A DNA stretch of 64,000 nucleotides from a virus. Shown piece by piece: positions 3,294 through 63,169 of the stretch. A model generated the notes under the pieces. That model made no database searches. It saw only the letters and a program-made list of their open reading frames with translations, and was not told the DNA's origin. Every line of letters begins with the position of its first letter. The first letter of the stretch is position 1. The stretch lies in IMG/VR virus record IMGVR_UViG_3300045988_112440; one strand, 5' to 3'. A program made the translations under genes and the position numbers.

Positions 3294-6200
3294 TTATACG
3301 CAACAAACATAAGAGGGCATATTAACTTTACCCGCACCATTTTTGAGCTTTCCGCTCATCTGCATTACGGACAGCACACCGGAGATGGCGGCTGTCAAAG
3401 TGGGTAATGCACCAGCAAATTTTACAGCGTTATCTGCACCGTCAACAAAAACCGTTGCAAGATCTACGAAAAACTTCGGGATATCTGACTTCATCAAGTC
3501 CGTACTAAACTTCTGGAATGCAGAATCAAGCTGATTAAGCTTTGCCTGCAAGGAATCCATGTACGTCTGGTTCTCACGCATTGCGCTGCCGCTAGAATTA
3601 AGCGCTTGCTTCATAGCATCTTCAGCAACGCTAAAATTATTCAGCAGGGCAGATGTACTCTGACCTCCTCTCTTACCAGAGATCAGCTCAGTAATATTTG
3701 CCTGTGTTGTGTCAGACAGATTTTTCCAAACCTCAGAAAGTTCCTTCATAATCTGATATGTTGATTTGAAGGTATTATTATCCTTCATAATATCAACACC
3801 AGCAAGTTGCTTCAACTCAGATCGAAGTTCGGATACAGAATCTGCCATCCCATCTGTTGCGATACCGGCATTTTCAGCATCTGTTTTTGAAGCACGAAGG
3901 TACATACTCAAAGTTTTTAGGTAAGTGCCACTCGTATCGGCGTCCTGAAGTACACCATTCACAGCAGCCGCCAAACTAAGCGTCTCCTGATATGTATTTC
4001 CGGCGGCAGACATCGCAGCTGAACTTTTCTGCATGATAATTCCAAGGTCGTTCATACTGACTGGTTCGGTATTAGCGATTTGGTTCATGCAGTCCAGAAG
4101 ACGCTCTGCATCATCAGCAACCAACCCAAAACCTTGCATTGCAGAAATCAGGTAAGAAGAAGCAGTTGTTGCATTATCTATTTGGTCTCCAACGTTAGCC
4201 ATAAGAGCAGACACACGAGCAAGCTCTTCTGAATCTTTATCAGTGTATCCAAGGCGTTTCCAATCGGCTGTGCTACTCACAAGATCAGAGATATTCGCAC
4301 CAAGTTCACGAGCGTTTGTTGCAGTTCTATCGAGATATTCATTCATCTCGTCGCCAGTCATTTTACTGACTTTTTTAAGCTCTGTTACAGCCGTGTCCAG
4401 TTCCAGAACATTATCATAAACCTCTCGCAGACCTTGTTTGACCATTGCAACGCCAGCCATAGCGATGGCGGTCTGGAAGTGCTCCTTAAACAAACGAGAC
4501 AGTTTTTGACCAAGCGTTTCAGTTTCGAGACCAGCTTGGTGGCAAGCATTTTGGAATTTGCTGACTTTCATTTGAGCTTCTTCAAAAGAATAACTGTTAT
4601 TCTTAATCGCATCGAAAAGCTCGTTATATTCTGCTTCAAACTTTGAGCCTTCAAATCCATGAAGTGTTTCTTTATACTGATATAGAGTACGCATAAGATT
4701 TTCTATCTTATCTGTATCAGTATTTGCTGTCTTTGTCTGACGGCTTTGCCCCAAAGCATCGTCAATATGTTTTCTCACCTGAACAAGTAAATCGTCAACT
4801 TGACTAAGTGTTGCTTTAAACTCTGTTGGACCTTTATTTTCATCCAACTGTTTCATAGCAGCATCTAGCTCTGCCAATACTTGTTGCCCAGTTTTGCCAT
4901 CATCCAACACGCCTGTGTTAAATTGCCCTAAAGCAACACTATTTTTTCTTGTGAATTCCGTACTACTTAATCTATTTTGAATAGTGTTATAGGCAGCTTG
5001 CTTTGAACGGACTTGACCGTGCTTCTGTTCGGCTTCTTTCTGCAAATCCTCTTCTGATTTCAAAGCTTGCTCAATTTGAATTTTTACCTTTAGCCACTCG
5101 TCAACAATATCACTTACTCGTTGTTTGTACGTAGCAGATTGAGTGTTCATTCCCTTTAAAGAATTAAGTTGGCTTTCAAGACTACCATCAAGAGAATTCG
5201 TCTTACTATCGCCAATAAGAACACTGTCAAAACTGTGGTTTCCGGCCTGCTCTAATTCTAATTCTTTTTTACGGATTTCAGTTAATGTTCTTCTCGCAGT
5301 GGATTCAAGGTCTTTGTATCCATCCGTGTAAACAGACATGGACGCTTTTGCACTAATAAAAGCATCATCTAAGTCTTTTACGCCTTTCTTGTATGCATCT
5401 GAACTATGGTCTGAATCCAACTTTTTAGACGCATCAATAATACCGTCAATGGAATCTCTCAATTCTTGCGAAGCAGTGTCGCTGTCCTTAATGGATTCCT
5501 TCCATTTCAGCGCCTGTTCCGTCATGCTCTTGACATGATTTTCAGCTTTCTTCTGAGCTTCATCAAAAGTACTCATCTGGCGAGTGGCGTCAGCCCATGT
5601 ATCAGCGACAACCTTTAATTGATTAACATAATCTTGCGTTCCGGTTTCAAGCGTGTTAAGAATATCAATCTGCTTTTGAACATCCGCAAGAGAAGATTTT
5701 ACATCAGAAGCTCCAGAAAAATTCTTATATTTATTATTGGCGTCAGCAAGATTATTTAAGTACGTATTAGTTTGATCGCTTTGTGATTTTTTTAAAGCCT
5801 TTAACGCTCCATCATTCGCGGCATTCTTTAACCCTTGAAGCCGAGCCTCAAGCCTAGAAATACTATTAGTTGTTGCTCGTTCAATTTCGGAAATTTTGCT
5901 AAACTCTTCCGTCGGAAGAATGTTTACAAGTTCTGTACGCAGCCGACCAGCTTCATTTCTAACAGCTTGAAGTTGACGTAAAACCTCTTCTAACTCTGGC
6001 TGATTCTTACCAGACGATTCAAGTTTGAGAGCATCCTTATAAAGAGAACCTTTTTCTTGAACCCTTCGGTAAAAAGCATCTAGTTTTTGTTTCGCTTCAT
6101 TAGTGTTTAAGTTTACTTTGACTTCGGCTTTCGCATTTTTCGCGCCAGACTGTGCTTTATCAACAGCCTTTTTTACAGCAGCATCAATATTAGATTCATC

Positions 6201-6461
6201 TATTTTCAAAGTGAGTTTTGGAGACTCTACCTTTTTAATGATTCGCTTCAATGCGGCATTAACATTGCCGATGGTTGCGCCTTCGTTTACACCAAAAGCA
6301 ATCTCCACAGGAGCCTTTTTAAAACTGTTTTGAACTCCTTTAAATTGATTTTTTAACTCCTCGGTAGTAGTATCAAGAACGACCTTGACCTTTATGGCCG
6401 TTACAGAGGAAGTATCAGCACTACTTGCGTTGTTTGTATTATCCGCCATACCGTTGGTCAC
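3294..6461 (-). CDS. tail tape measure protein (TP901-type core region near C-terminus)
   Basis: 1055 aa. Long coiled-coil N-terminal part, then ...ELGANISDLVSSTADWKRLGY...SSYLISAMQGFGL...MNQIANTEPVSMNDLGIIMQKSSAAMSAAGNTYQETLSLAAAVNGVLQDADTSGTYLKTL, typical of the TMP core; hydrophobic C-terminus. Confidence 0.85.
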   Translation of the reverse strand: MTNGMADNTNNASSADTSSVTAIKVKVVLDTTTEELKNQFKGVQNSFKKAPVEIAFGVNEGATIGNVNAALKRIIKKVESPKLTLKIDESNIDAAVKKAVDKAQSGAKNAKAEVKVNLNTNEAKQKLDAFYRRVQEKGSLYKDALKLESSGKNQPELEEVLRQLQAVRNEAGRLRTELVNILPTEEFSKISEIERATTNSISRLEARLQGLKNAANDGALKALKKSQSDQTNTYLNNLADANNKYKNFSGASDVKSSLADVQKQIDILNTLETGTQDYVNQLKVVADTWADATRQMSTFDEAQKKAENHVKSMTEQALKWKESIKDSDTASQELRDSIDGIIDASKKLDSDHSSDAYKKGVKDLDDAFISAKASMSVYTDGYKDLESTARRTLTEIRKKELELEQAGNHSFDSVLIGDSKTNSLDGSLESQLNSLKGMNTQSATYKQRVSDIVDEWLKVKIQIEQALKSEEDLQKEAEQKHGQVRSKQAAYNTIQNRLSSTEFTRKNSVALGQFNTGVLDDGKTGQQVLAELDAAMKQLDENKGPTEFKATLSQVDDLLVQVRKHIDDALGQSRQTKTANTDTDKIENLMRTLYQYKETLHGFEGSKFEAEYNELFDAIKNNSYSFEEAQMKVSKFQNACHQAGLETETLGQKLSRLFKEHFQTAIAMAGVAMVKQGLREVYDNVLELDTAVTELKKVSKMTGDEMNEYLDRTATNARELGANISDLVSSTADWKRLGYTDKDSEELARVSALMANVGDQIDNATTASSYLISAMQGFGLVADDAERLLDCMNQIANTEPVSMNDLGIIMQKSSAAMSAAGNTYQETLSLAAAVNGVLQDADTSGTYLKTLSMYLRASKTDAENAGIATDGMADSVSELRSELKQLAGVDIMKDNNTFKSTYQIMKELSEVWKNLSDTTQANITELISGKRGGQSTSALLNNFSVAEDAMKQALNSSGSAMRENQTYMDSLQAKLNQLDSAFQKFSTDLMKSDIPKFFVDLATVFVDGADNAVKFAGALPTLTAAISGVLSVMQMSGKLKNGAGKVNMPSYVCCV

Positions 6462-6489
6462 CTCTCTTTTCCATTTTCAACATTCCTTT

Positions 6490-7147: not shown

Positions 7148-8137
7148 TCAAATCTCAAACCGATCCTTTGCGGACTGAATCTTGGTCGTATCCTTCTTGA
7201 TGTAATACTTGTTGGTCACATCCGTACCAGCATGGTTAAGCAGGGAAGATACGTCTTCCAGACTCATACCGGCATTCTTCAACAGAGTAGCACCACTGTG
7301 CCGGAAATCATGCGGATGCAGCGTTGGCTCATCAATCATCTCGCCAATCTTCTTACACCAGTCACCGGCAGTGCTTGAGGTAATCGGCATCCATGCACCA
7401 TTGATTTTCGTACCAACGAACACATAGCCACCATCCTCAATATCATGCTCAGTGCGATACTCTTTCAGTTCTTTCAAAAGCTCAGAAACTTCCTTACTAA
7501 ACATCAAATCTACGATTTTACCTTCTTTTTCCAGAACGTCATGCACCATGCGGTTCTCATAGTCGATAGACTTCCAAAGCGTATTCCGCACAGCATTGAC
7601 ACGAGCCATCGTTGATAGCGAGAACAGTGCATACAGACGCAGCGTCATCGCATTATCCTTCATGTGAACGGTGGTCGCAGATTCAACCAGAGCGTTCAGC
7701 TTCTCTCGCATCAACTTAACCTCATCAGGCGTAAGGTATGTCTGCTTCACAACAGCCACATCCTTGGTCGGTCGGTCAATGAACTCCATCGGATTTTCTT
7801 TGATGATTTTCTTCTTGCGAAGATACCGGTACAGCGCAGAAATCGTACTCATACGTCGCTTCATACGAGCAGAGTTATTTCCATGCTTCTTACAATAGAA
7901 CAGAAATTCCTCAATATCCTCTTCCTCAAGTTCCGTCACAGGAGCATTACCCTGATTGTCCAGAACATAAATCATCCACTGCTTGAAATCCGATTCATAA
8001 TTGTAAACAGTAGACGGGCTGAGATCACGGATGCCCATATCAGTCTCATATCTATCCCAGTATTTCAAAGACACTGGGTTTACGTTTTTGAACTTCTCAG
8101 CATCCCATAACTTCAGCGGTTTACTTCTTGTAGCCAT
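7148..8137 (-). CDS. tyrosine recombinase (XerC/D or phage-integrase type, catalytic residues present)
   Basis: 329 aa; SAM-like N-terminal domain; ARVNAV (Arg I), HPHDFRHSGAT (HxxR), LLNHAGTDVTNKYY (His..Tyr). Confidence 0.85.
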   Translation of the reverse strand: MATRSKPLKLWDAEKFKNVNPVSLKYWDRYETDMGIRDLSPSTVYNYESDFKQWMIYVLDNQGNAPVTELEEEDIEEFLFYCKKHGNNSARMKRRMSTISALYRYLRKKKIIKENPMEFIDRPTKDVAVVKQTYLTPDEVKLMREKLNALVESATTVHMKDNAMTLRLYALFSLSTMARVNAVRNTLWKSIDYENRMVHDVLEKEGKIVDLMFSKEVSELLKELKEYRTEHDIEDGGYVFVGTKINGAWMPITSSTAGDWCKKIGEMIDEPTLHPHDFRHSGATLLKNAGMSLEDVSSLLNHAGTDVTNKYYIKKDTTKIQSAKDRFEI

Positions 8138-11161: not shown

Positions 11162-11631
11162 CCCACAAGGTCATCCAGATCCTGCGTCTTGAACGTCATA
11201 ATTCGCACACGATGGTGTAAATCCATATTGTCCTCGATATTGGATGTGATTTTAAGCTGTTTGATTCCAAAAATTGTACTGCCGTGTAGTTCTTTTTCCA
11301 CAAGACCACTCAGATAGTCAACTCGTGTTGCACCACCATGGCCCTTCATTTTCATCAGCGCCTGGTTCACAATAACCCATACAGTAAGTGTGAAGTTTTC
11401 ATACCAGTCGTTGACGTTGCTTCGGTCAGTCATATTTACCTTAAAACAAATATAGCTGTGCGCTGCCTCAATCGTGTCAGGAATATGGAAGTATGGGAAG
11501 ATGTATGTATAAATCGCCTCGTCAGGCTCTTCAATGTCATCATTGCCCATCGCTTCAACAAGCCCATCAGTATTAACCAGCTTCAAGGCCAATTTGTTTT
11601 TATAATCAGTAATCAATTCACTCGTTGTCAC
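11152..11631 (-). CDS. hypothetical head-tail joining protein
   Basis: 159-aa ORF, translationally coupled on both sides. Confidence 0.6.
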   Translation of the reverse strand: MTTSELITDYKNKLALKLVNTDGLVEAMGNDDIEEPDEAIYTYIFPYFHIPDTIEAAHSYICFKVNMTDRSNVNDWYENFTLTVWVIVNQALMKMKGHGGATRVDYLSGLVEKELHGSTIFGIKQLKITSNIEDNMDLHHRVRIMTFKTQDLDDLVGCG

Positions 11632-12653
11632 AGCAAACTCACCACCTTACATTCAATGGATGCATTTGCTGTACCATCTGCATTCGTCAAAGAAATCCTA
11701 ACAGTTGCGCCGTCCATAATACTATTATTCAAAATACGAATTTTAAAAGTACCATCGTCGGCAGTCTGCGTTTCTACAAATTCCTTGAATTCCTCAAGGC
11801 AAACGAACTTCCACTTAGCAATTTCAGTAATTTCCTCGCCAGCAACACTTGTGAACATAGGAGAGAATTTTTTCCAAGAACCACCAATACGAACCTCTGG
11901 TTTTCCTACATACTTTATAGTAGCTGTCACACGAGAATCTATTTCTGATTCGTCGATTTTGTTTGGCTCAAAATAATCACAAATCATCTTCTCAGCATTA
12001 TCCGTCTTACTGTTATACTGATCCTGCCGGATGTTCAACACAAGGAACCCCTGTGTCCTACCATGCAGTTCGTAACGCTCTGTACTCTGGTCAACAGAAG
12101 TCGTAACATACGTTTTCGGCTCGCCATTGATAATTTCCAACATAAAGCGCTTATCAAGGTCAATCAGTGCGGTCTCGTCATCAAAAGGCATCTGTACTTT
12201 ATATTCACGTTGACTCAATGAAGTCATGATAATCTCCTTATTATTTGCGTAATAAGGCTTACTCAGTGTTGCCCAACGAGAGACTATCTCACCAGTAATC
12301 GGATTTTGCCATTGGATTTGACGGTTACACAGCTCCATTTTTCCACGAAGAAAAATTTCATCGTTTGGTTCAATCTCAGTTACCAGCTATTTACAATTGT
12401 AGCAGTCAACAATGTCGCCAAGATTCAAAGAATCACCAGGATAAGCCCAGATTTTCTTTTCCTTAGCAATACTATTACTGCGACTAACAACCAGCTTCTG
12501 AGGTAAACCATTCACAAGAGCATTATCCTCGTAATCAACGCTATCTTTAAAATGTGCAGCAAAATCTCGCTTTGCAAAAGCAATTTTGACATCCTTTTTG
12601 TTAGACATTTTTGCGGCACCACCAACAGCTCGTGCCCTTGTATAAAAGTCCAT
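11628..12653 (-). CDS. structural protein with one in-frame TAG (12387-12389); C-terminal Ig-like segment
   Basis: The 88-aa ORF (12387-12653) and the 236-aa ORF (11628-12338) share one frame. A single TAG plus 16 open codons separates them: ...DIVDCYNCK-TAG-LVTEIEPNDEIFLRGKMELCNRQ... No convincing RBS before the internal ATG. Confidence 0.6.
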
Positions 12654-12665
12654 CGGTACACCTCC

Positions 12666-13166
12666 TTACTCAGAGTAGGAAGCGTATGTATCATAGTCGA
12701 TGGTCTTACGCTTACGGGTCGAGCGGTCTTTTGCCATATAGTTGTCTAACATCGTCATATTCTCCTCGTGAATGTCTTTCACAAGAGCACGAATACTCGT
12801 GCGCTCATTAGCAGGGGAGAATACTTGTAAACTCGTAGGAAGGTCCTGTGCGCTAAATGCTTTCAACTTCCCAAACTCACGCTTAAAATGTTGCTCCAAC
12901 ATCAAATGCGCTAACATATCAATCTCATCGAATGTGAGATCTGAATTAAACTCTTCTAGTTCTGAATCGTAATCATCGAAACTAAAATCCTCTTCCGGTT
13001 CAATGTTTCTGGTAATCACAGAAAGTGACTCCATCAAATAACTTTTTGCACGGTCATGTACAAGATCTCGCACTTCATTCTCGCTCAGGTCAAAATACTG
13101 AAAGAAATTACTATCAGTTTCGACCAGCTCGTAGAACTTGTCGTATATTTCCGAAAATGCGGTCAC
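12666..13166 (-). CDS. acidic hypothetical head/neck protein
   Basis: 166-aa ORF in the morphogenesis operon. Confidence 0.6.
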   Translation of the reverse strand: MTAFSEIYDKFYELVETDSNFFQYFDLSENEVRDLVHDRAKSYLMESLSVITRNIEPEEDFSFDDYDSELEEFNSDLTFDEIDMLAHLMLEQHFKREFGKLKAFSAQDLPTSLQVFSPANERTSIRALVKDIHEENMTMLDNYMAKDRSTRKRKTIDYDTYASYSE

Positions 13167-18802: not shown

Positions 18803-20653
18803 TTAGAAGTCAATGTTAGAAATACAAATCGGCGGAGCAGTCATTGTCTCCACCGCAGACTGGCGCACTTTATCCTTACGACGTAATTCGTATAGACGAT
18901 GAGCAAGTAAAATTGCAACATAGAACCTATCATCGTGAATTTTGTTGGCAACATCGGGTGCCAAAGCATATGTTACGGTCGTATTTTCAGAGTTTGTCGT
19001 TTTCTGAATACTTGTGATCTCGTTCTTCATCAAGTCGATGTTAACCCACGCAGTCTGTTCCTCTAAGGAAAGTTCATGCGTCTTCAAAATTTCTTGACCA
19101 GTTGATTTATCCACACCGTCTACTACCTGAACATAATCTCCGCCGTTGTATTCAAGAGGGAAATGAATGACACCAAGATTCATCAGCTCAATAAATTCCT
19201 CAACCATTGCAGTGCGGAATTTACGAGGACTAATTAGACGTAGCTTATCAACAGCATCTGGGTAACGGGTATCATATCCTTCATATAATTCATGATTTGC
19301 GTCGATAAAACCACGATGTTCTGCACCTGTTTTATCAGTCCAATTGTTAAGTAAACCGTCCGCATATGTGGAAGTACCACCGCCACCAGCGCCTTGGTCA
19401 ATCATCAATCTATCAATGTACTCATAATCAGGATTTTGACCATTGTAATGTAGAATCAACTCATGTAACTGCTCAAGCTGACGATTAGAATCGAGCTTGA
19501 ATTTTTTCTCGTTCGCAAGATCAACCATGTTCACGCAATTTATAATGTCGCCACACATGCCGTTTTCTGGATCGTTATAAATGCGCATAACGCCAACAAT
19601 AGAGTTATCCATTGTGCGGGCAGGATCAAACGCAAGAATATACTGATAGTTCCTATCCCAATAAAGCTGTGGGATATACTTTCGCTCATTGCGACGAACC
19701 GTACCCCATTTGATAATCTGGTTTACGCCACCATCACGGCTTGGTCGATTATAATACTCACGCAATGCCTTCATTTTATTTGACTTTAGAGCTGCATCTA
19801 CCTTGTCTTGTGTCAATAGTGCTTTGTATGGCTTACCCTTCATATAAACTTTGATTGCAACGTCACAAATCATATCACAAACAAAATAATCTCGATCTCC
19901 TGCAATCATGCGCTTTGCAAATTGCTTGTAGTATTTATAAAAAAGCTTGTCCATCGTGTCCTGACTTGAAGCATAAACTAGCTGAGTAGGAACCTGACGA
20001 GGCTGCATTTCAGGATTATAGTCACTGTCAGTGTCAGTGACGAAATCCGTATTCTGTGTTGCAAAAGCTTCACAGACAACAATCAGTTCGTCGGAGCAGA
20101 ATGCCGCCTCATCAAAGAAAATAAGACTAGCTCGCTTGCCACGCACACCATCTGGGTTGGAGTTCAAAGTGTTAATAGAACTACCGTTATAAAACTCAAC
20201 AACATACCCGGCGGGATTATGACTAAAACCACTTTTGTTGGTTGCAGACTTTTTCGTTTCTTTCTCTGCAATATCTTGCAGACTACGGATAGACGCAGCC
20301 GTCTTACCAACACGAGTAACAATTTCCTCGATCTTATTAAATGTCTCTTTTGCCTGATCACCTACATTACTTACAATGTAAATAGACTGGTTCTCATATA
20401 ATATTGCCTTTAGGATAATGAAAACAGAACCTACAAAAGACTTGCCAAAGTTTCGACTACACGCCTAAAGAACATGACTTGCATTCCAGCTTTGTTCCAG
20501 CATATATGCCTGAGCGTCAAATAATTGGATACCCAATAAATCTCTAGCCGCAATAACAGGATTGCGCCGATAGAATGCAATCGTTGCCGCATCACACTCA
20601 TAAATCTTACGTTTTGCGGCTGTAATAATAGGCGCTCTTTGTTTCATCCTCAT
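18803..20653 (-). CDS. terL: terminase large subunit with one in-frame TAG (20465-20467)
   Basis: N-terminal ORF ends ...QSWNASHVL-TAG. The same frame continues ACSRNFGKSF (Walker A) for 100 open codons into the 454-aa ORF (LIFFDEAAF Walker B, nuclease half). No independent start for the downstream part. Confidence 0.8.
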
Positions 20654-22239: not shown

Positions 22240-22345
22240 GACATATGATGCCTAAGTGTCATCTACTACCAAATCGTGTGCACATCACAGGTTTGCCATA
22301 GATCGACTTCGGACTTGCCTCCAACCGCGAATTGGAAGCCATTTT

Positions 22346-22422
22346 TGGCACGCCCAGAGAGACTTCAACTCCCAAGAGGCAGATTTAGAGTCTGCTGTTT
22401 TAAGCAATTAAACTATAGGCGC
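22346..22422 (-). tRNA. suppressor tRNA, anticodon CUA (reads UAG)
   Basis: Hand-folded cloverleaf: acceptor GCGCCUA/UGGGCGU, D stem GUUU/AAAC, anticodon stem GCAGA/UCUGC, loop CU-CUA-AA, 5-nt variable loop, T stem GGGAG/CUCUC, G73, encoded CCA. Confidence 0.85.
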
Positions 22423-47744: not shown

Positions 47745-47771
47745 AAGTTGAATTTTATTGGAGACAACAAA

Positions 47772-47936
47772 ATGAAATATATTATTGAAGATTGGTTGAC
47801 GGAAGAAATAATTAAAGTTTTTTCAAGTGAAGAAGAAAGAAATGAATGGATTGAGGACAATTGTACATGGTTTAGTGATGGATGCTTTATCACGGACACA
47901 GAAACAAAAATTTCAATTTATGAATCAAAACAATAG
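47772..47936 (+). CDS. hypothetical small acidic protein; the only gene here ending in TAG
   Basis: Start ATG 47772 (TGGAGA RBS); 54 aa; stop TAG 47934-47936. Confidence 0.45.
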   Translation: MKYIIEDWLTEEIIKVFSSEEERNEWIEDNCTWFSDGCFITDTETKISIYESKQ

Positions 47937-53154: not shown

Positions 53155-53379
53155 ATGATGAAATATGGAAACATAACGTGTAAACGATGTGGGGCTACGT
53201 GGTATGGGCCAAAGTGTGGAAAGCTTTATTGTGATAATTGCAGAAGGATTGTGGATAGAGAAAAAGATATTAGATGTAAAAATAAAAAGAAACACAAACC
53301 GACATTTGTTGAAATTACAAGAATGGCAGATGCAGAGGGACTGTCCTATGGCAAGTATTGTTTAAAATATGGAATCTAA
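53155..53379 (+). CDS. zinc-ribbon small basic protein
   Basis: Start ATG 53155; CKRC..CDNC; 74 aa. Confidence 0.55.
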   Translation: MMKYGNITCKRCGATWYGPKCGKLYCDNCRRIVDREKDIRCKNKKKHKPTFVEITRMADAEGLSYGKYCLKYGI

Positions 53380-53392
53380 AGGAGACGCAAAT

Positions 53393-54238
53393 ATGAACGC
53401 AGTATCTGAAAAGAACGAAAATAACGCAGTTGAGTTTAATCCGCCAAAGGTTGATCCTGCTCCCAAAGTGAAACATAACCAGGCGAAGAACTATAGTATC
53501 AAACGCAAGGAAGCTTGTAATGGAACGGTGCAGCCTATTAAAGATGTAGAGGATATTAAACGAATTTCGGAATATTTTTGGAATCGTGGGATGTACCGTG
53601 ATTGGTGTTTGTTTAATGTTGGTGTATGTACTGGTTTTCGTGCAAGCGATTTGCTTCGTTTTAAGGTTTCAGATGTTACAACGCAGAGGGTAAATGGAAA
53701 GTTGCAAGTAAATGCAAATGCAAAAATACGAATGAAGGAAAAGAAGACTGGAAAATACCGTATTGTTTTTCTTCCAGAATCTGCTTTGGAAGTGATTTCT
53801 ACTTATATCAATAAAGTTAAGCTCCATTATGACGATTGGCTTTTCCCGTCATGTAAAGGCAGCTCTCGCAATTCACTGAGGAGCACAGGTGGGACATCAA
53901 TTAGTAAAAAGACTGGAATTATGTATACACACGAGGCAAATCCAAAGGTATCCGGGGAGCCGCTTGATGTGGATAGTTTTGGACGAATTATGAAAAAGGT
54001 TCAAAAGGATATGGCTCTTCCATATAATCTTGGAACACATAGTTGCCGTAAGACATTCGGCTATCAGTTTATGGTACAGCACCGTGATGATGTTATGGCT
54101 CTGGCCTGGCTTCAGCACGCTTTGAATCATAGTAGTCAGGCAATCACTCTTCATTATATTGGTCTTGATTCAGAAGTGGATGAGAGATATTACTCTGGAA
54201 TCAATTATGGTGTGAATACTCATAGTGAAAACTCTTGA
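53393..54238 (+). CDS. tyrosine recombinase (catalytic residues present)
   Basis: Start ATG 53393 (AAGGAGA RBS). TGFRASDL (Arg), HSCRKTF (HxxR), LNHSSQAITLHY (His..Tyr). Confidence 0.8.
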   Translation: MNAVSEKNENNAVEFNPPKVDPAPKVKHNQAKNYSIKRKEACNGTVQPIKDVEDIKRISEYFWNRGMYRDWCLFNVGVCTGFRASDLLRFKVSDVTTQRVNGKLQVNANAKIRMKEKKTGKYRIVFLPESALEVISTYINKVKLHYDDWLFPSCKGSSRNSLRSTGGTSISKKTGIMYTHEANPKVSGEPLDVDSFGRIMKKVQKDMALPYNLGTHSCRKTFGYQFMVQHRDDVMALAWLQHALNHSSQAITLHYIGLDSEVDERYYSGINYGVNTHSENS

Positions 54239-58284: not shown

Positions 58285-58310
58285 GAACTAAGATTTAGGA
58301 GGAAATAGTT

Positions 58311-59087
58311 ATGCCGAGAAGGAAAACAGTAGAAGCACTGCAATTAACGCCGAAAGAAATAGCTCGTAAGTCGCCTACTTTTATGGAGCTTCCTGAGATG
58401 GTAAGCCGTGCTGGTGAGCCTACATACTATTATGATGTGGGAGATGCTGTAGAGATTGGTCATCTTAGCGGATGCAAGATTGATGAAGTCTGCGACGGTG
58501 GTTTATATTACGGTGTTTCTTACGATGATGGATATAGGTACGAAACGTGGTTTAACATTCGTAAAGCAGGTATTGAGAAGAAATCTCAACTGACAGAGAA
58601 TGATGACATTAAGATTTCCTACTCAAATGTGACCATCGAATCCTTGCTCCACAGGTATTACTTCTTTGGCATCAACTGCAATCCGAGTTATCAACGTGGA
58701 TCTGTGTGGACAGATGATGACCGTAAACTGCTTCTTGAAACAATTTTTATGGGTGGTGAAATTGGTCGATTCGTTTTAAAAAATATTGATATGGACGAAT
58801 GGAATGAAAATCAGAATTACCTTTATGAAATCATTGATGGAAAGCAGAGGCTTCTGACGCTGACTGCATTCTACGAAGATCGTTTCCGTTACAAAGGATA
58901 TCTGTATAGTGAACTCTCTAAAAAGGACAAGAGAACATTTGATGAGGCCGTTGTTGCTATTGCAGATTTGCGGAATCTTTCTAAGAAAGATATGTTGCGT
59001 GTATTCTTGTTACTGAATCGTGGCGGCAAGGTTGTTACCAACGACGTACTTAATCATGCAAAAGAGTTACTAGATGAAATGGAGTGA
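58311..59087 (+). CDS. DUF262/ParB-like nuclease-domain protein
   Basis: 258 aa; NPSYQRGSVWTDDDRKLLLETIFMGGEIGRFVL and IIDGKQRLLTL motifs (the N-terminal domain type seen in GmrSD). Confidence 0.65.
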   Translation: MPRRKTVEALQLTPKEIARKSPTFMELPEMVSRAGEPTYYYDVGDAVEIGHLSGCKIDEVCDGGLYYGVSYDDGYRYETWFNIRKAGIEKKSQLTENDDIKISYSNVTIESLLHRYYFFGINCNPSYQRGSVWTDDDRKLLLETIFMGGEIGRFVLKNIDMDEWNENQNYLYEIIDGKQRLLTLTAFYEDRFRYKGYLYSELSKKDKRTFDEAVVAIADLRNLSKKDMLRVFLLLNRGGKVVTNDVLNHAKELLDEME

Positions 59088-59444: not shown

Positions 59445-59600
59445 ATGAGTAGTGTACTTATTGATCGGAACGCAGCTAAGAAGGTAGAATCCATCTTCGA
59501 GCATCCTGATAAGGTCTATTCGGTGTATTTGAAAGCTGGCGGAGATGTCGTTTGGCTGCAAGGTGAAATTGAGTTGTATGAATTTTTGCGTAGCTTGTAA
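59445..59600 (+). CDS. hypothetical small protein (51 aa, below track cutoff)
   Basis: ATG 59445 behind an AAGGAGAA RBS. Confidence 0.45.
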   Translation: MSSVLIDRNAAKKVESIFEHPDKVYSVYLKAGGDVVWLQGEIELYEFLRSL

Positions 59601-59626
59601 AACTAAGTTTTAATATAGGTGATTTT

Positions 59627-60379
59627 ATGACAAGAAATGAATTGCTTGGAGCATTATGCTTTCCAGAATATAATTTTCTTCGGGAGAATGAGCATCTTGG
59701 CAAGCATATGATGTTCGTAACGGTCGGTGGCAGTCATGCTTATGGAACAAATGTTGAGGGTTCAGATCTCGACATCCGAGGGGTGGCATTAAATTCAAGA
59801 GAAGACCTTCTTGGTCTTGGTGAGTTTGAACATTATGTGGATACTCAAACTGATACTACAATCTACAGCTTTAATAAGGCTGTGAAGCTAATGTGCAGTG
59901 GAAATCCTAATATGCTGGAGCAGCTAGGGAACGCCGATGAACTCGTTATTAGCTATAATCCAATGACAAAGTTACTTATGGATAATAAAAAGCTGTTCCT
60001 GTCGAGGCGTGTAATCTATTCGTTTGGCGGTTTTGCAGGTAAGCTGATTCAGAAGGCTGATACGCTGGACAAAGATCCAATTTATCATGGCTCAAAGAAA
60101 ATGCACAAGACGGTAATGAATGTAGTTCGTGTATACCTGATGCTCTTTGACATCTTAGAAAAAGGTGAAATTAAAACCTATCGAGACAACGATCATAACT
60201 TCCTGACGCAGCTTCGCAACGGTGAATATGATTACAAAGAGATTCGTCAGCAACTGATTCCGGCCTATGAAAGCAGATTGTCAGTGGACAAGAGTGAGAC
60301 TTACCTGCCGGACAATGTTGATTGGAAGCGGGTCAACGAGCTTGTGATGACTGTAAATGAGGAGTCTTTAAAGATTTGA
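59627..60379 (+). CDS. Pol-beta-superfamily nucleotidyltransferase (RlaP/PF10127-like)
   Basis: 250 aa; VTVGGSHAYGTNVEGSDLDIRGV N-terminal nucleotidyltransferase motif. Confidence 0.6.
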   Translation: MTRNELLGALCFPEYNFLRENEHLGKHMMFVTVGGSHAYGTNVEGSDLDIRGVALNSREDLLGLGEFEHYVDTQTDTTIYSFNKAVKLMCSGNPNMLEQLGNADELVISYNPMTKLLMDNKKLFLSRRVIYSFGGFAGKLIQKADTLDKDPIYHGSKKMHKTVMNVVRVYLMLFDILEKGEIKTYRDNDHNFLTQLRNGEYDYKEIRQQLIPAYESRLSVDKSETYLPDNVDWKRVNELVMTVNEESLKI

Positions 60380-62191: not shown

Positions 62192-62242
62192 TTTGTTCTC
62201 AGGTTTAATGGTACACTACATAATAAGAAGGAGTGTGCCACT

Positions 62243-63169
62243 ATGCTTACTGAAGAAAAAATCAAATCTTTTGCCGAAAAGTATTCTGATAGAAGCGGTG
62301 AGTTTGTTATATCGACGCTTAACCATGTTATGGATTACGAGGCCGAGCGTGGATATGAGTTGTTTGACTTCACAAAAGATGATTTTGTAAGGATGTTTGC
62401 TAAATACAATTGGGTGAACTCAAGTCGGTCGTTCAGAAATGTAAAGTCGATAATTACAGGGTACATCAAAAGTGATGATCGAGCGAGTATGTATGACTTA
62501 GCTGAATTCTCGGAGAGCGATGTGAGTTCAGACAATATGTACGAGGACAAGTATTTTGCATCAGTTGATGAGTTTGTTGATTTCTTGGACAAGTATGAAG
62601 AACCATATCAGATTCGTATGAACGTGATTGCCGTACTGTACTGGATTGGACTTACTTCTGAAGAGGTTTCTAATCTGACAATCAACAATGTTGATTTTGA
62701 ATCATGTACTGTTCTGAATAGGACCGGTGTTGACGCAAGACTGATGAATATCATTAAGCAGTGTTATGAAATGAAACAATACGATGCTCCAAATATGGGA
62801 GGATACAGAACGTTTTATGTCATAAATGGTGATTACATCCTTCGCAAAACAGAGGATAGAACTGGTGCAGACAGTGATTCAAGAATGTCTACAAACACAA
62901 TTCATAGTTATTTCACGCGCTTGAATGATATTCTCGAAAGAAGATATCATTCAAAGGCTTTAGACCGAAGACATCTGACTAGAAACGGCGAGTATGTCAA
63001 GGTTTATAACTACTGTAAAACTCATCCAGAATTTAATCTTGCAGAACTTAGTTTCGGAAATGGTAAAGATCCTCTTGCGGACATTATCGGAAGAAAGTGC
63101 AGCAAGGTTGCCTACATTAGTTTCCGGCAAGGATACAAGGGCTGGATCGAATACTTCCACAAAAATTAA
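62243..63169 (+). CDS. degenerate tyrosine-recombinase-like protein (Arg I lost); candidate DNA-binding regulator
   Basis: 308 aa; recombinase-like layout, but box I reads WIGLTSEEVSNL (Thr in place of Arg); HLTRN retained; AAGGAG RBS. Confidence 0.5.
   Translation: MLTEEKIKSFAEKYSDRSGEFVISTLNHVMDYEAERGYELFDFTKDDFVRMFAKYNWVNSSRSFRNVKSIITGYIKSDDRASMYDLAEFSESDVSSDNMYEDKYFASVDEFVDFLDKYEEPYQIRMNVIAVLYWIGLTSEEVSNLTINNVDFESCTVLNRTGVDARLMNIIKQCYEMKQYDAPNMGGYRTFYVINGDYILRKTEDRTGADSDSRMSTNTIHSYFTRLNDILERRYHSKALDRRHLTRNGEYVKVYNYCKTHPEFNLAELSFGNGKDPLADIIGRKCSKVAYISFRQGYKGWIEYFHKN

Follow-up and report, generated by a model that had tools for sequence, protein, structure and literature searches.

Tryptophan-position amber codons and a putative tRNA-Trp-type amber suppressor in an uncultured SPbeta-like phage

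The stretch of viral DNA analyzed here, IMG/VR record IMGVR_UViG_3300045988_112440 (64,000 nucleotides, referred to below as the window), carries on its minus strand a late gene for a predicted neck protein (positions 11628 to 12653) that is interrupted at codon 89 by a single in-frame TAG. We propose, with a probability of about 0.78, that this TAG is read as tryptophan (Trp) by an amber-suppressor tRNA encoded by the phage, that the neck gene is one working gene, and that the phage is sparsely recoded. A preliminary description based on the letters of the window and its open reading frames (ORFs) had noted that two ORFs share one frame at this locus and are separated by the TAG and 16 sense codons, so that reading through would give a 341-aa protein. 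The coordinates and counts were exact in every respect (88 + 1 + 16 + 236 = 341 codons in one frame, by direct reading of the minus strand). The same description had seen no convincing ribosome-binding site (RBS) at the internal ATG, and we agree: only GTGGAAAA lies ahead of that ATG, with no Shine-Dalgarno sequence, compared with the strong AAGGAGGTG at the true start (Table 1).

We searched for homologues with the fused sequence, placing X at the TAG. The query matched 341-aa proteins at 91, 82, 74, and 72% identity, all across the junction, and homologues of 330 to 344 aa down to ~30% identity also cover it. Since full-length homologues as distant as this span the junction, the two ORFs are not juxtaposed by chance. 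In the alignment, the TAG column holds Trp in nearly all homologues and phenylalanine in one, and the residue at this position (W89) hardly varies even in homologues at 30% identity. Two PHROG profiles match the neck protein across residues 32 to 237, junction included, while Pfam returned no match for the fused protein or for most of its neighbors. Homologues with an independent start at the internal ATG (MELCNRQ) would have spoken for two genes; the full-length homologues are all uninterrupted there and none starts at that position, and the sole 236-aa entries come from gene calling on DNA that carries the TAG (P0007 and L001).

An AlphaFold2 model of a 91% identical homologue (P0001; mean predicted local distance difference test [pLDDT] score, 82) predicts an N-terminal helical pair, a beta-domain at residues ~54 to 211, and a C-terminal immunoglobulin-like (Ig-like) domain at ~240 to 341. 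W89 lies within strand 87-94, in a 10-residue block with pLDDT of ~91, and the internal Met106 lies inside strand 103-108 of the same beta-domain. Both checks that had been proposed for a fusion therefore came out in its favor, with one confidently modeled beta-domain spanning the TAG and with the sense codon TGG (Trp) at the TAG site of relatives. It had also been suggested that partial suppression could yield a short and a long product. This idea appears structurally unattractive in light of the model, since the 88-aa fragment would end in the middle of the beta-domain. The best BFVD match is a 96% identical, 341-aa protein annotated as "Head closure knob" (Siphoviridae sp. ctGa111), and several more distant BFVD matches carry the same annotation. 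The "head closure" or neck function is a predicted label, its name coming solely from these annotations. The position of the gene, between the capsid gene (YonB-like) and the YomW/YomU tube genes, is consistent with a connector role. A fold search of the PDB gave weak matches only, mostly to Ig-like domains, along with the lambda tube protein gpV, and therefore supports no functional assignment beyond a virion protein with an Ig-like domain.

Variation among related alleles points to a single coding sequence. In TAG alleles the ratio of nonsynonymous to synonymous polymorphism (pN/pS) is 0.08 ahead of the TAG and 0.13 beyond it; in TGG alleles it is 0.03 and 0.08 upstream and downstream of codon 89, respectively. 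Across the 16 codons that follow the TAG, 83 alleles contain 20 variant codon types, all of them synonymous, as are the 7 found in TAG alleles alone. This segment is best read as a translated part of the neck gene, with no intergenic spacer. One could argue instead that the TAG is a genuine stop, with an 88-aa protein followed by a 236-aa protein made through reinitiation at ATG 12338; standard-code gene callers yield exactly these two ORFs, and the ATG lies just 16 codons past the TAG. Against this, the internal ATG lacks an RBS, the intervening codons vary only synonymously even in TAG alleles, M106 sits in a beta-strand of a domain that begins before the TAG, no naturally split homologue was found, and TAG alleles follow the suppressor tRNA described below. 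We consider reinitiation very improbable. Altogether, the homologues, profiles, model, pN/pS ratios, and synonymous 16-codon segment exclude the two-gene and pseudogene readings and support the one gene, read through the TAG, that had been proposed.

The TAG at codon 89 is not an assembly error, since a Logan assembly made independently (L001) has the identical TAG, as do 25 of 80 IMG/VR loci. A second Logan assembly (L002) has TGG. Over all related loci, codon 89 is TAG in 26 of 82 and TGG in the other 56. A second Trp codon of the gene, W69, behaves similarly. An alignment of 83 gene copies contains 48 with TGG at the two Trp sites, 27 in which W89 is TAG, and 8 in which W69 is TAG; no copy has TAG at both. 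The gene tree requires at least three state changes for each site. Public sequences that match the called 236-aa downstream ORF form a cluster of 213 (P0007). The change from TGG to TAG is a single transition, and a few singleton TAGs at glutamate (Glu) or glutamine (Gln) codons of relatives may be inactivating nonsense mutations in decaying phages or sequencing artefacts. Extending that explanation to the neck gene is the least probable of the alternatives that we weighed, given that the same TAG recurs across several datasets (27 of the 83 gene copies) and among the 213 catalogue sequences, that purifying selection is kept on either side of it, that a like change is found in a second essential gene, and that TAGs are linked to a suppressor.

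The putative suppressor is a tRNA with anticodon CUA, encoded 9.7 kb upstream of the neck gene on the same strand and adjoining tRNA-Ser(UGA) and tRNA-Thr(UGU). A BLAST search of the window-type tRNA against phage records returned only a marginal tRNA-Lys match (E = 0.05); its identity rests on synteny, the acceptor stem, comparison with E. coli trpT, and the codon sites at which TAG is found. Relatives have a slot, flanked by tRNA-Ser and tRNA-Met, that is occupied by tRNA(CUA), by tRNA-Trp(CCA), by tRNA-Lys(UUU) followed by a tRNA(CUA) that ARAGORN missed, by tRNA-Tyr(GUA), or by nothing. Where tRNA-Trp(CCA) occupies it, as in TAG-free relatives, the two main sites are both TGG. An acceptor stem of GCGCCYR / YGGRCGU with a G1.U72 pair is nearly invariant in all suppressor types and in tRNA-Trp(CCA), which also have in common the discriminator G73 and the loop CUCYAAA. 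The five tRNAs compared fold as cloverleaves, and the divergence of their D, anticodon, and T stems includes 12 compensatory pairs. Furthermore, the window-type (type 1) tRNA resembles annotated E. coli trpT in the D arm, variable loop, and T arm, and the type 2 suppressor matches genes annotated as tRNA-Trp in Pseudomonas phages. When IMG/VR was scanned by pattern, such suppressors were found on 112 contigs (81 + 31), in at least six sequence types, and the CCA form on far fewer (16 contigs). By these comparisons, tRNA(CUA) belongs to a phage tRNA-Trp family in which the anticodon changed from CCA to CUA.

The slot itself (L003-L082) is highly variable among phages that are >90% identical and holds at least four of the at least six tRNA(CUA) types. 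Directly 3' of the suppressor in the window (22300-22345, minus strand) is an element composed of AAAATG, an 8-bp hairpin (GCTTCCAA-TTCGCGG-TTGGAGGC), and AAGTCCGAAGTC. It also follows the slot tRNAs of L024, L060, L081, and L016/L020, near positions 250 to 450, with a compensatory change in L060 (GTTTCCAA...TTGGAGAC) and a different stem within the same flanks in L016 and L020. The element could be a tRNA processing or termination signal. A search beside the tRNA for a theta (hepatitis delta virus-like) ribozyme gave no Rfam match at E <= 10, and by eye the hairpin topology does not fit one. The same slot in L016 (329-436) and L020 contains a 108-nt tRNA-like element that scores 29.9 bits on the Rfam tRNA model. 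We rejected this element as a CUA suppressor; with introns allowed, ARAGORN calls it tRNA-Ser(GCU) with a 28-nt insert.

To ask whether in-frame TAGs and the suppressor occur together, we compared the window's late genes, in translation, with the 80 IMG/VR loci. A Trp-type tRNA(CUA) was present on the contigs of 33 of the 38 loci with an in-frame TAG and of 4 of the 42 loci without one (Fisher p = 9e-13, a value that, like the binomial values below, overstates independence because the loci are related and most come from IMG dataset 3300045988). The five TAG loci without a suppressor comprise one 7.5-kb fragment, three partial contigs, and one locus with a singleton CAG-to-TAG change. A neck-gene TAG is found in 29 of the 37 suppressor-bearing loci.

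The second essential gene with an in-frame TAG encodes the terminase large subunit (TerL), on the relatives of which Pfam finds Terminase_6N/TerL_ATPase. Its codon 63 is TAG in the window, just upstream of a Walker A-like motif (SRNFGKS), in a column that holds Trp in 109 of 120 homologues; in related loci this codon is TGG in 45 and TAG in 19. Four public catalogue entries for TerL (P0034, P0040, P0042, and P0043) carry Gln at this position, and the DNA of P0034, which we checked, has TAG at the site, the Gln coming from code 15 translation. Recurrent TAG sites number five in the loci compared: W69 and W89 of the neck protein, W56 and W63 of TerL, and one in the tape-measure-like protein. All five are TGG in relatives, and singleton TAGs at a further four positions also replace Trp codons. 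No TAG was found in the major capsid or tube genes of these loci. TGG makes up 5% of the codons that are one step from TAG in these late genes, where CAG is ~3 times as common as TGG (161 versus 58). Finding nine Trp sites among 11 to 15 has a probability of ~1e-10 to 8e-9, or of 2e-4 to 6e-3 if only transitions are considered. Five other TAGs of the window (2887, 1311, 8162, 9220, and 13899) were considered as in-frame codons and rejected, as they lie upstream of real starts or in poor ORFs.

Trp is the predicted amino acid because the recurrent sites are all TGG in relatives and the tRNA has tRNA-Trp ancestry; both Trp insertion at codon 89 and Trp charging of the tRNA are inferred from sequence. 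Several observations weigh against this proposal. Four singleton TAGs replace GAG or CAG (Glu/Gln) codons. Four loci (L008, L011, L016, and L020) bear a TAG with no suppressor seen, these being fragments, partial contigs, or loci whose tRNA region is outside the stretch fetched; L016 and L020 have TAG at W89, and tRNA(CUA) went undetected on their partial contigs. To these we add the overstated independence of the P values. Finally, E. coli tRNA-Trp with a CUA anticodon loses recognition by tryptophanyl-tRNA synthetase (TrpRS) and is charged by glutaminyl-tRNA synthetase (GlnRS) (Yaniv et al. 1974, as cited in PMC2965240), and the weak G1.U72 pair and G73 of the phage tRNA would not obviously exclude GlnRS.

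Accordingly, read-through could be real with the tRNA charged by host GlnRS, as with E. coli su+7, placing Gln or a Gln/Trp mixture at residue 89. Besides the E. coli precedent (PMC2965240), U35, G73, and the weak 1:72 pair of the suppressor would suit such charging, and TAG-to-Gln is the sole phage amber reassignment in Borges et al. and has been validated by proteomics (PMC9523058). The codon sites argue otherwise: the recurrent TAGs all replace conserved Trp and none replaces Gln, in spite of the greater abundance of CAG. In addition, near-invariance of W89 to 30% identity and its place in a beta-strand speak against Gln, and the acceptor stem has been conserved with that of phage tRNA-Trp(CCA) across at least six diverged suppressor types. 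We regard charging with Gln as improbable, more credible than a genuine stop at codon 89 but well behind charging with Trp. A tryptic peptide across the TAG would be WLVTEIEPNDEIFLR if Trp is inserted and QLVTEIEPNDEIFLR if Gln is inserted.

The mechanism that we envisage begins with a change of codon 89 of the neck gene from TGG to TAG. Ribosomes would pass this TAG by using the phage amber-suppressor tRNA, which most likely inserts Trp and would thereby restore the ancestral protein, with charging presumably by host TrpRS. TerL of the same genome would depend on the same tRNA through the TGG-to-TAG change at its codon 63, and the supply of phage tRNA would decide when, and in what amount, full-length TerL and neck protein are produced. 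The TAGs might then gate the translation of these low-copy assembly proteins or limit their dosage, as Borges et al. proposed for recoded phages. No TrpRS or release factor was found among the larger ORFs of the window, with about half of the genome lying beyond it.

We can only speculate on such a gate or attenuator role. Read-through might be real and without regulatory meaning, with TGG-to-TAG changes drifting near neutrality once a suppressor exists (the "detoxified stop codon" of the Borges model). The four singleton TAGs at other Trp codons are consistent with drift, as are four suppressor-bearing loci with no TAG in the 21 kb seen and the near-absence of TAG as a stop throughout the lineage, suppressor-free relatives included. 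However, most TAGs are held by 4 of 58 TGG codons (neck W69 and W89, TerL W56 and W63). Selection rather than pure drift is suggested by the restriction of TAGs to a few N-terminal Trp codons of two genes, by the mutual exclusion of the two sites within a gene (a suppressor-bearing locus with a neck-gene TAG always has it at one of two N-terminal Trp codons, never both), and by the recurrence of TAG, through at least three state changes per site, with different suppressor types at each site and none in the capsid or tube genes. In our view, drift without function is less likely than not but a serious rival. As for the lineage as a whole, we lean slightly toward the broader view that ~130-kb SPbeta-like gut phages have evolved UAG-to-Trp decoding, with at least six suppressor types that derive from the phage's own tRNA-Trp and replace one another in a single slot, "switch" Trp codons (the five recurrent sites) that toggle between TGG and TAG among close relatives, and assembly and packaging proteins whose translation depends on the tRNA.

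TAG is scarcely used to terminate genes in the window. A crude gene call of the window gave 59 TAA, 53 TGA, and 5 TAG stops, and the five TAG stops belong to the two split genes, an ORF over a tRNA, an ORF in a divergent intergenic region, and one genuine-looking ORF (47748-47936). TAG therefore ends at most one plausible gene of ~115 in the window. TAG stops are likewise near-absent from the late regions of relatives with or without a suppressor. The genuine-looking ORF is a small early gene on the plus strand (MKYIIEDW..., 53 codons from ATG 47773, with its TAG at 47934), listed in the crude call as 62 aa from an upstream TTG. It is in frame with the next gene (47974 onward, plus strand), which has its own RBS, AAAGGAGAA, and ATG. 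With an RBS and a new start behind it, TAG 47934 has the look of a true stop. Unless the tRNA is absent during early translation, suppression would join this ORF to the next gene. Fragmentation under the standard code is small, with 2 of ~117 ORFs split in 64 kb, unlike the marked fragmentation or loss of coding density that typifies recoded phages.

By its gene content, the window appears to come from an uncultured SPbeta-like gut siphophage. The minus-strand genes from position 1 to ~32.5 kb form the late block. Upstream of both the tRNA cluster and the late genes, and on their strand, is a gene for a YonO-like RdRP-fold protein; its Pfam family includes YonO, the single-subunit RNA polymerase of SPbeta. 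Pfam also found ClpP, PhoH, and tyrosine recombinase domains in the window, and orthologues in L001 and L002 match YonB (PF27364, capsid), YomW (PF27256), and YomU (PF27173, tube). The related IMG/VR contigs are mostly 125 to 139 kb. TerL is 22 to 29% identical to that of SPbeta-like Bacillus and Clostridium phages (26 to 29% for Bacillus SPbeta phages), and the low identity indicates that the relationship to SPbeta is distant. Megablast with 12 kb of late-region sequence matched no phage in GenBank, and searches at the protein level returned none but these distant relatives. An Oscillospiraceae metagenome-assembled genome (MAG) is among the TerL matches, and a host search of species-representative genomes gave one weak match, to a Ruminococcus MAG; the host is probably a member of the Clostridia. 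Elsewhere in the window, a tyrosine recombinase gene (Phage_integrase and SAM-like domains; 7148-8137, minus strand) lies inside the late structural operon, among tail genes, and is kept in relatives, and two further recombinase-like genes are found in the plus-strand half (53366-54235 and 62192-63166, both plus). Two adjacent plus-strand genes encode a GmrSD N-terminal (DUF262-type) domain (58299-59084) and an RlaP nucleotidyltransferase of an RNA-repair pathway family (59594-60376) and may be defence or counter-defence cargo.

Table 1. Coordinates of the features discussed, numbered along the 64,000-nt window
Feature	Position	Strand	Basis
Neck protein gene (predicted label), 341 codons, with its stop codon	11628..12653	minus	Translation, full-length homologues, PHROG, AlphaFold2, BFVD
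First ORF, 88 codons	ATG 12653-12651 to TAG 12389-12387	minus	Direct reading
Downstream ORF, 236 codons	ATG 12338-12336 to TGA 11630-11628	minus	Direct reading
In-frame amber, codon 89 of neck gene	12387..12389	minus	Trp column in homologues
16 sense codons, TAG to internal ATG (LVTEIEPNDEIFLRGK)	12339..12386	minus	Variation among 83 alleles
Shine-Dalgarno sequence of true start (AAGGAGGTG)	12659..12667	minus	Direct reading; strong
Terminase large subunit gene (TerL), 616 codons	18803..20653	minus	Translation; 864 homologues
In-frame amber, TerL codon 63, in place of conserved Trp	20465..20467	minus	Homologue column
Putative amber-suppressor tRNA, tRNA-Trp type, anticodon CUA, encoded CCA end	22346..22422	minus	ARAGORN; Rfam tRNA, 53 bits
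RdRP-fold protein, 941 aa	26648-29473	minus	Pfam RdRP PF05183, E = 8e-15
Tape-measure-like protein	3294-6476	minus	Pfam

If Trp is indeed inserted, then in living cells a tRNA with a CUA anticodon can be served by bacterial TrpRS or by a factor of the phage, and an incipient code change has been caught while still polymorphic, with an assignment not demonstrated before in any phage. Natural "before" and "after" genomes would open to study the proposed route to recoding, in which stop depletion is followed by gain of a suppressor and then by the earliest in-frame stops of late genes. Detectors of recoding that depend on coding density would miss such phages; standard gene callers split TerL and the neck gene, and code 15 callers insert Gln where Trp belongs. 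The natural tRNA-Trp(CUA) variants are also candidate parts for genetic-code expansion.

The best-known amber recoding in gut phages is TAG-to-Gln (code 15), described in crAss-like, Lak, Garnet/Topaz, and phAss-1 phages (bioRxiv 10.1101/2021.08.26.457843; PMC9523058; PMC10607447). As in those phages, genes for late structural and packaging proteins (TerL among them) contain in-frame TAGs here, a tRNA(CUA) is encoded by the phage, standard-code decoding is presumed for the host, few genes end in TAG, and control of late-gene translation has been proposed. The window shows two features by which recoded phages are recognized, in-frame stops in sense columns of conserved essential genes and a cognate suppressor tRNA of the phage's own. 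The differences are that TAGs here fall in Trp rather than Gln columns, that the tRNA is of the Trp type, that TAG is polymorphic among genomes >90% identical, and that recoding is sparse, with 2 genes in 64 kb and 1 to 4 codons per 21 kb in relatives compared with 41 ORFs in phAss-1. Borges et al. (10.1101/2021.08.26.457843) observed only TAG-to-Gln and TGA-to-Trp. The latter (code 4) is known from Jade, Sapphire, and Agate phages (Borges et al.) and from the zeta crAss-like phage Lera (PMC12386605). There, too, a stop codon occupies conserved Trp positions and the suppressor tRNA is related to tRNA-Trp, but the codon is UGA rather than UAG. For UGA, wobble-like reading by a tRNA-Trp derivative (UCA) is enough, whereas UAG requires a change at position 35, which damages TrpRS recognition in E. 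coli (PMC2965240).

A prior hint of this tRNA class comes from Kienbeck et al. 2024 (PMC10879173), in which 19.4% of 180 theta-ribozyme-associated phage tRNA-Sup(CUA) were predicted to be of Trp isotype, with reference to the "rarely reported code 32." That prediction was made by tRNAscan isotype, and the recoding threshold given in the same paper was a gain in coding density of 5 to 10% or more under the alternative code. Unlike the theta-ribozyme-associated tRNAs as presented there, the tRNA described here encodes its CCA end, and we detected no ribozyme beside it. We found no description of TAG at Trp sites in phages in the limited literature that we searched. The phage has the traits expected of a code in which TAG means Trp, namely TAG at conserved Trp positions and a tRNA-Trp body with a CUA anticodon. 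Such a code exists as NCBI translation table 32, used in Balanophoraceae plastids. A different precedent for a stop inside a structural gene is the Q-beta A1 protein, in which a stop that ends a complete, functional coat protein is partly read by a host tRNA. The neck gene would resemble it, if both a short and a long product were made, in having a stop within a structural gene that a tRNA decodes only part of the time, but here the stop lies within strand 87-94 of a folded domain and the phage has a dedicated suppressor.

For the tRNA itself, a precedent is E. coli su+7 (supU), an amber suppressor that arose in the laboratory when the anticodon of tRNA-Trp was changed from CCA to CUA and that is charged by GlnRS (Yaniv et al. 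1974, as cited in PMC2965240). The phage tRNA has the same anticodon change in a tRNA-Trp body. Unlike su+7, however, the phage tRNAs are natural, exist in at least six types, and are accompanied by codon sites that indicate Trp. Phage recoding of TAG to Gln and of TGA to Trp with suppressor tRNAs is known, and the TAG-to-Trp reading suggested by the sequences described here would add a further amino acid assignment.

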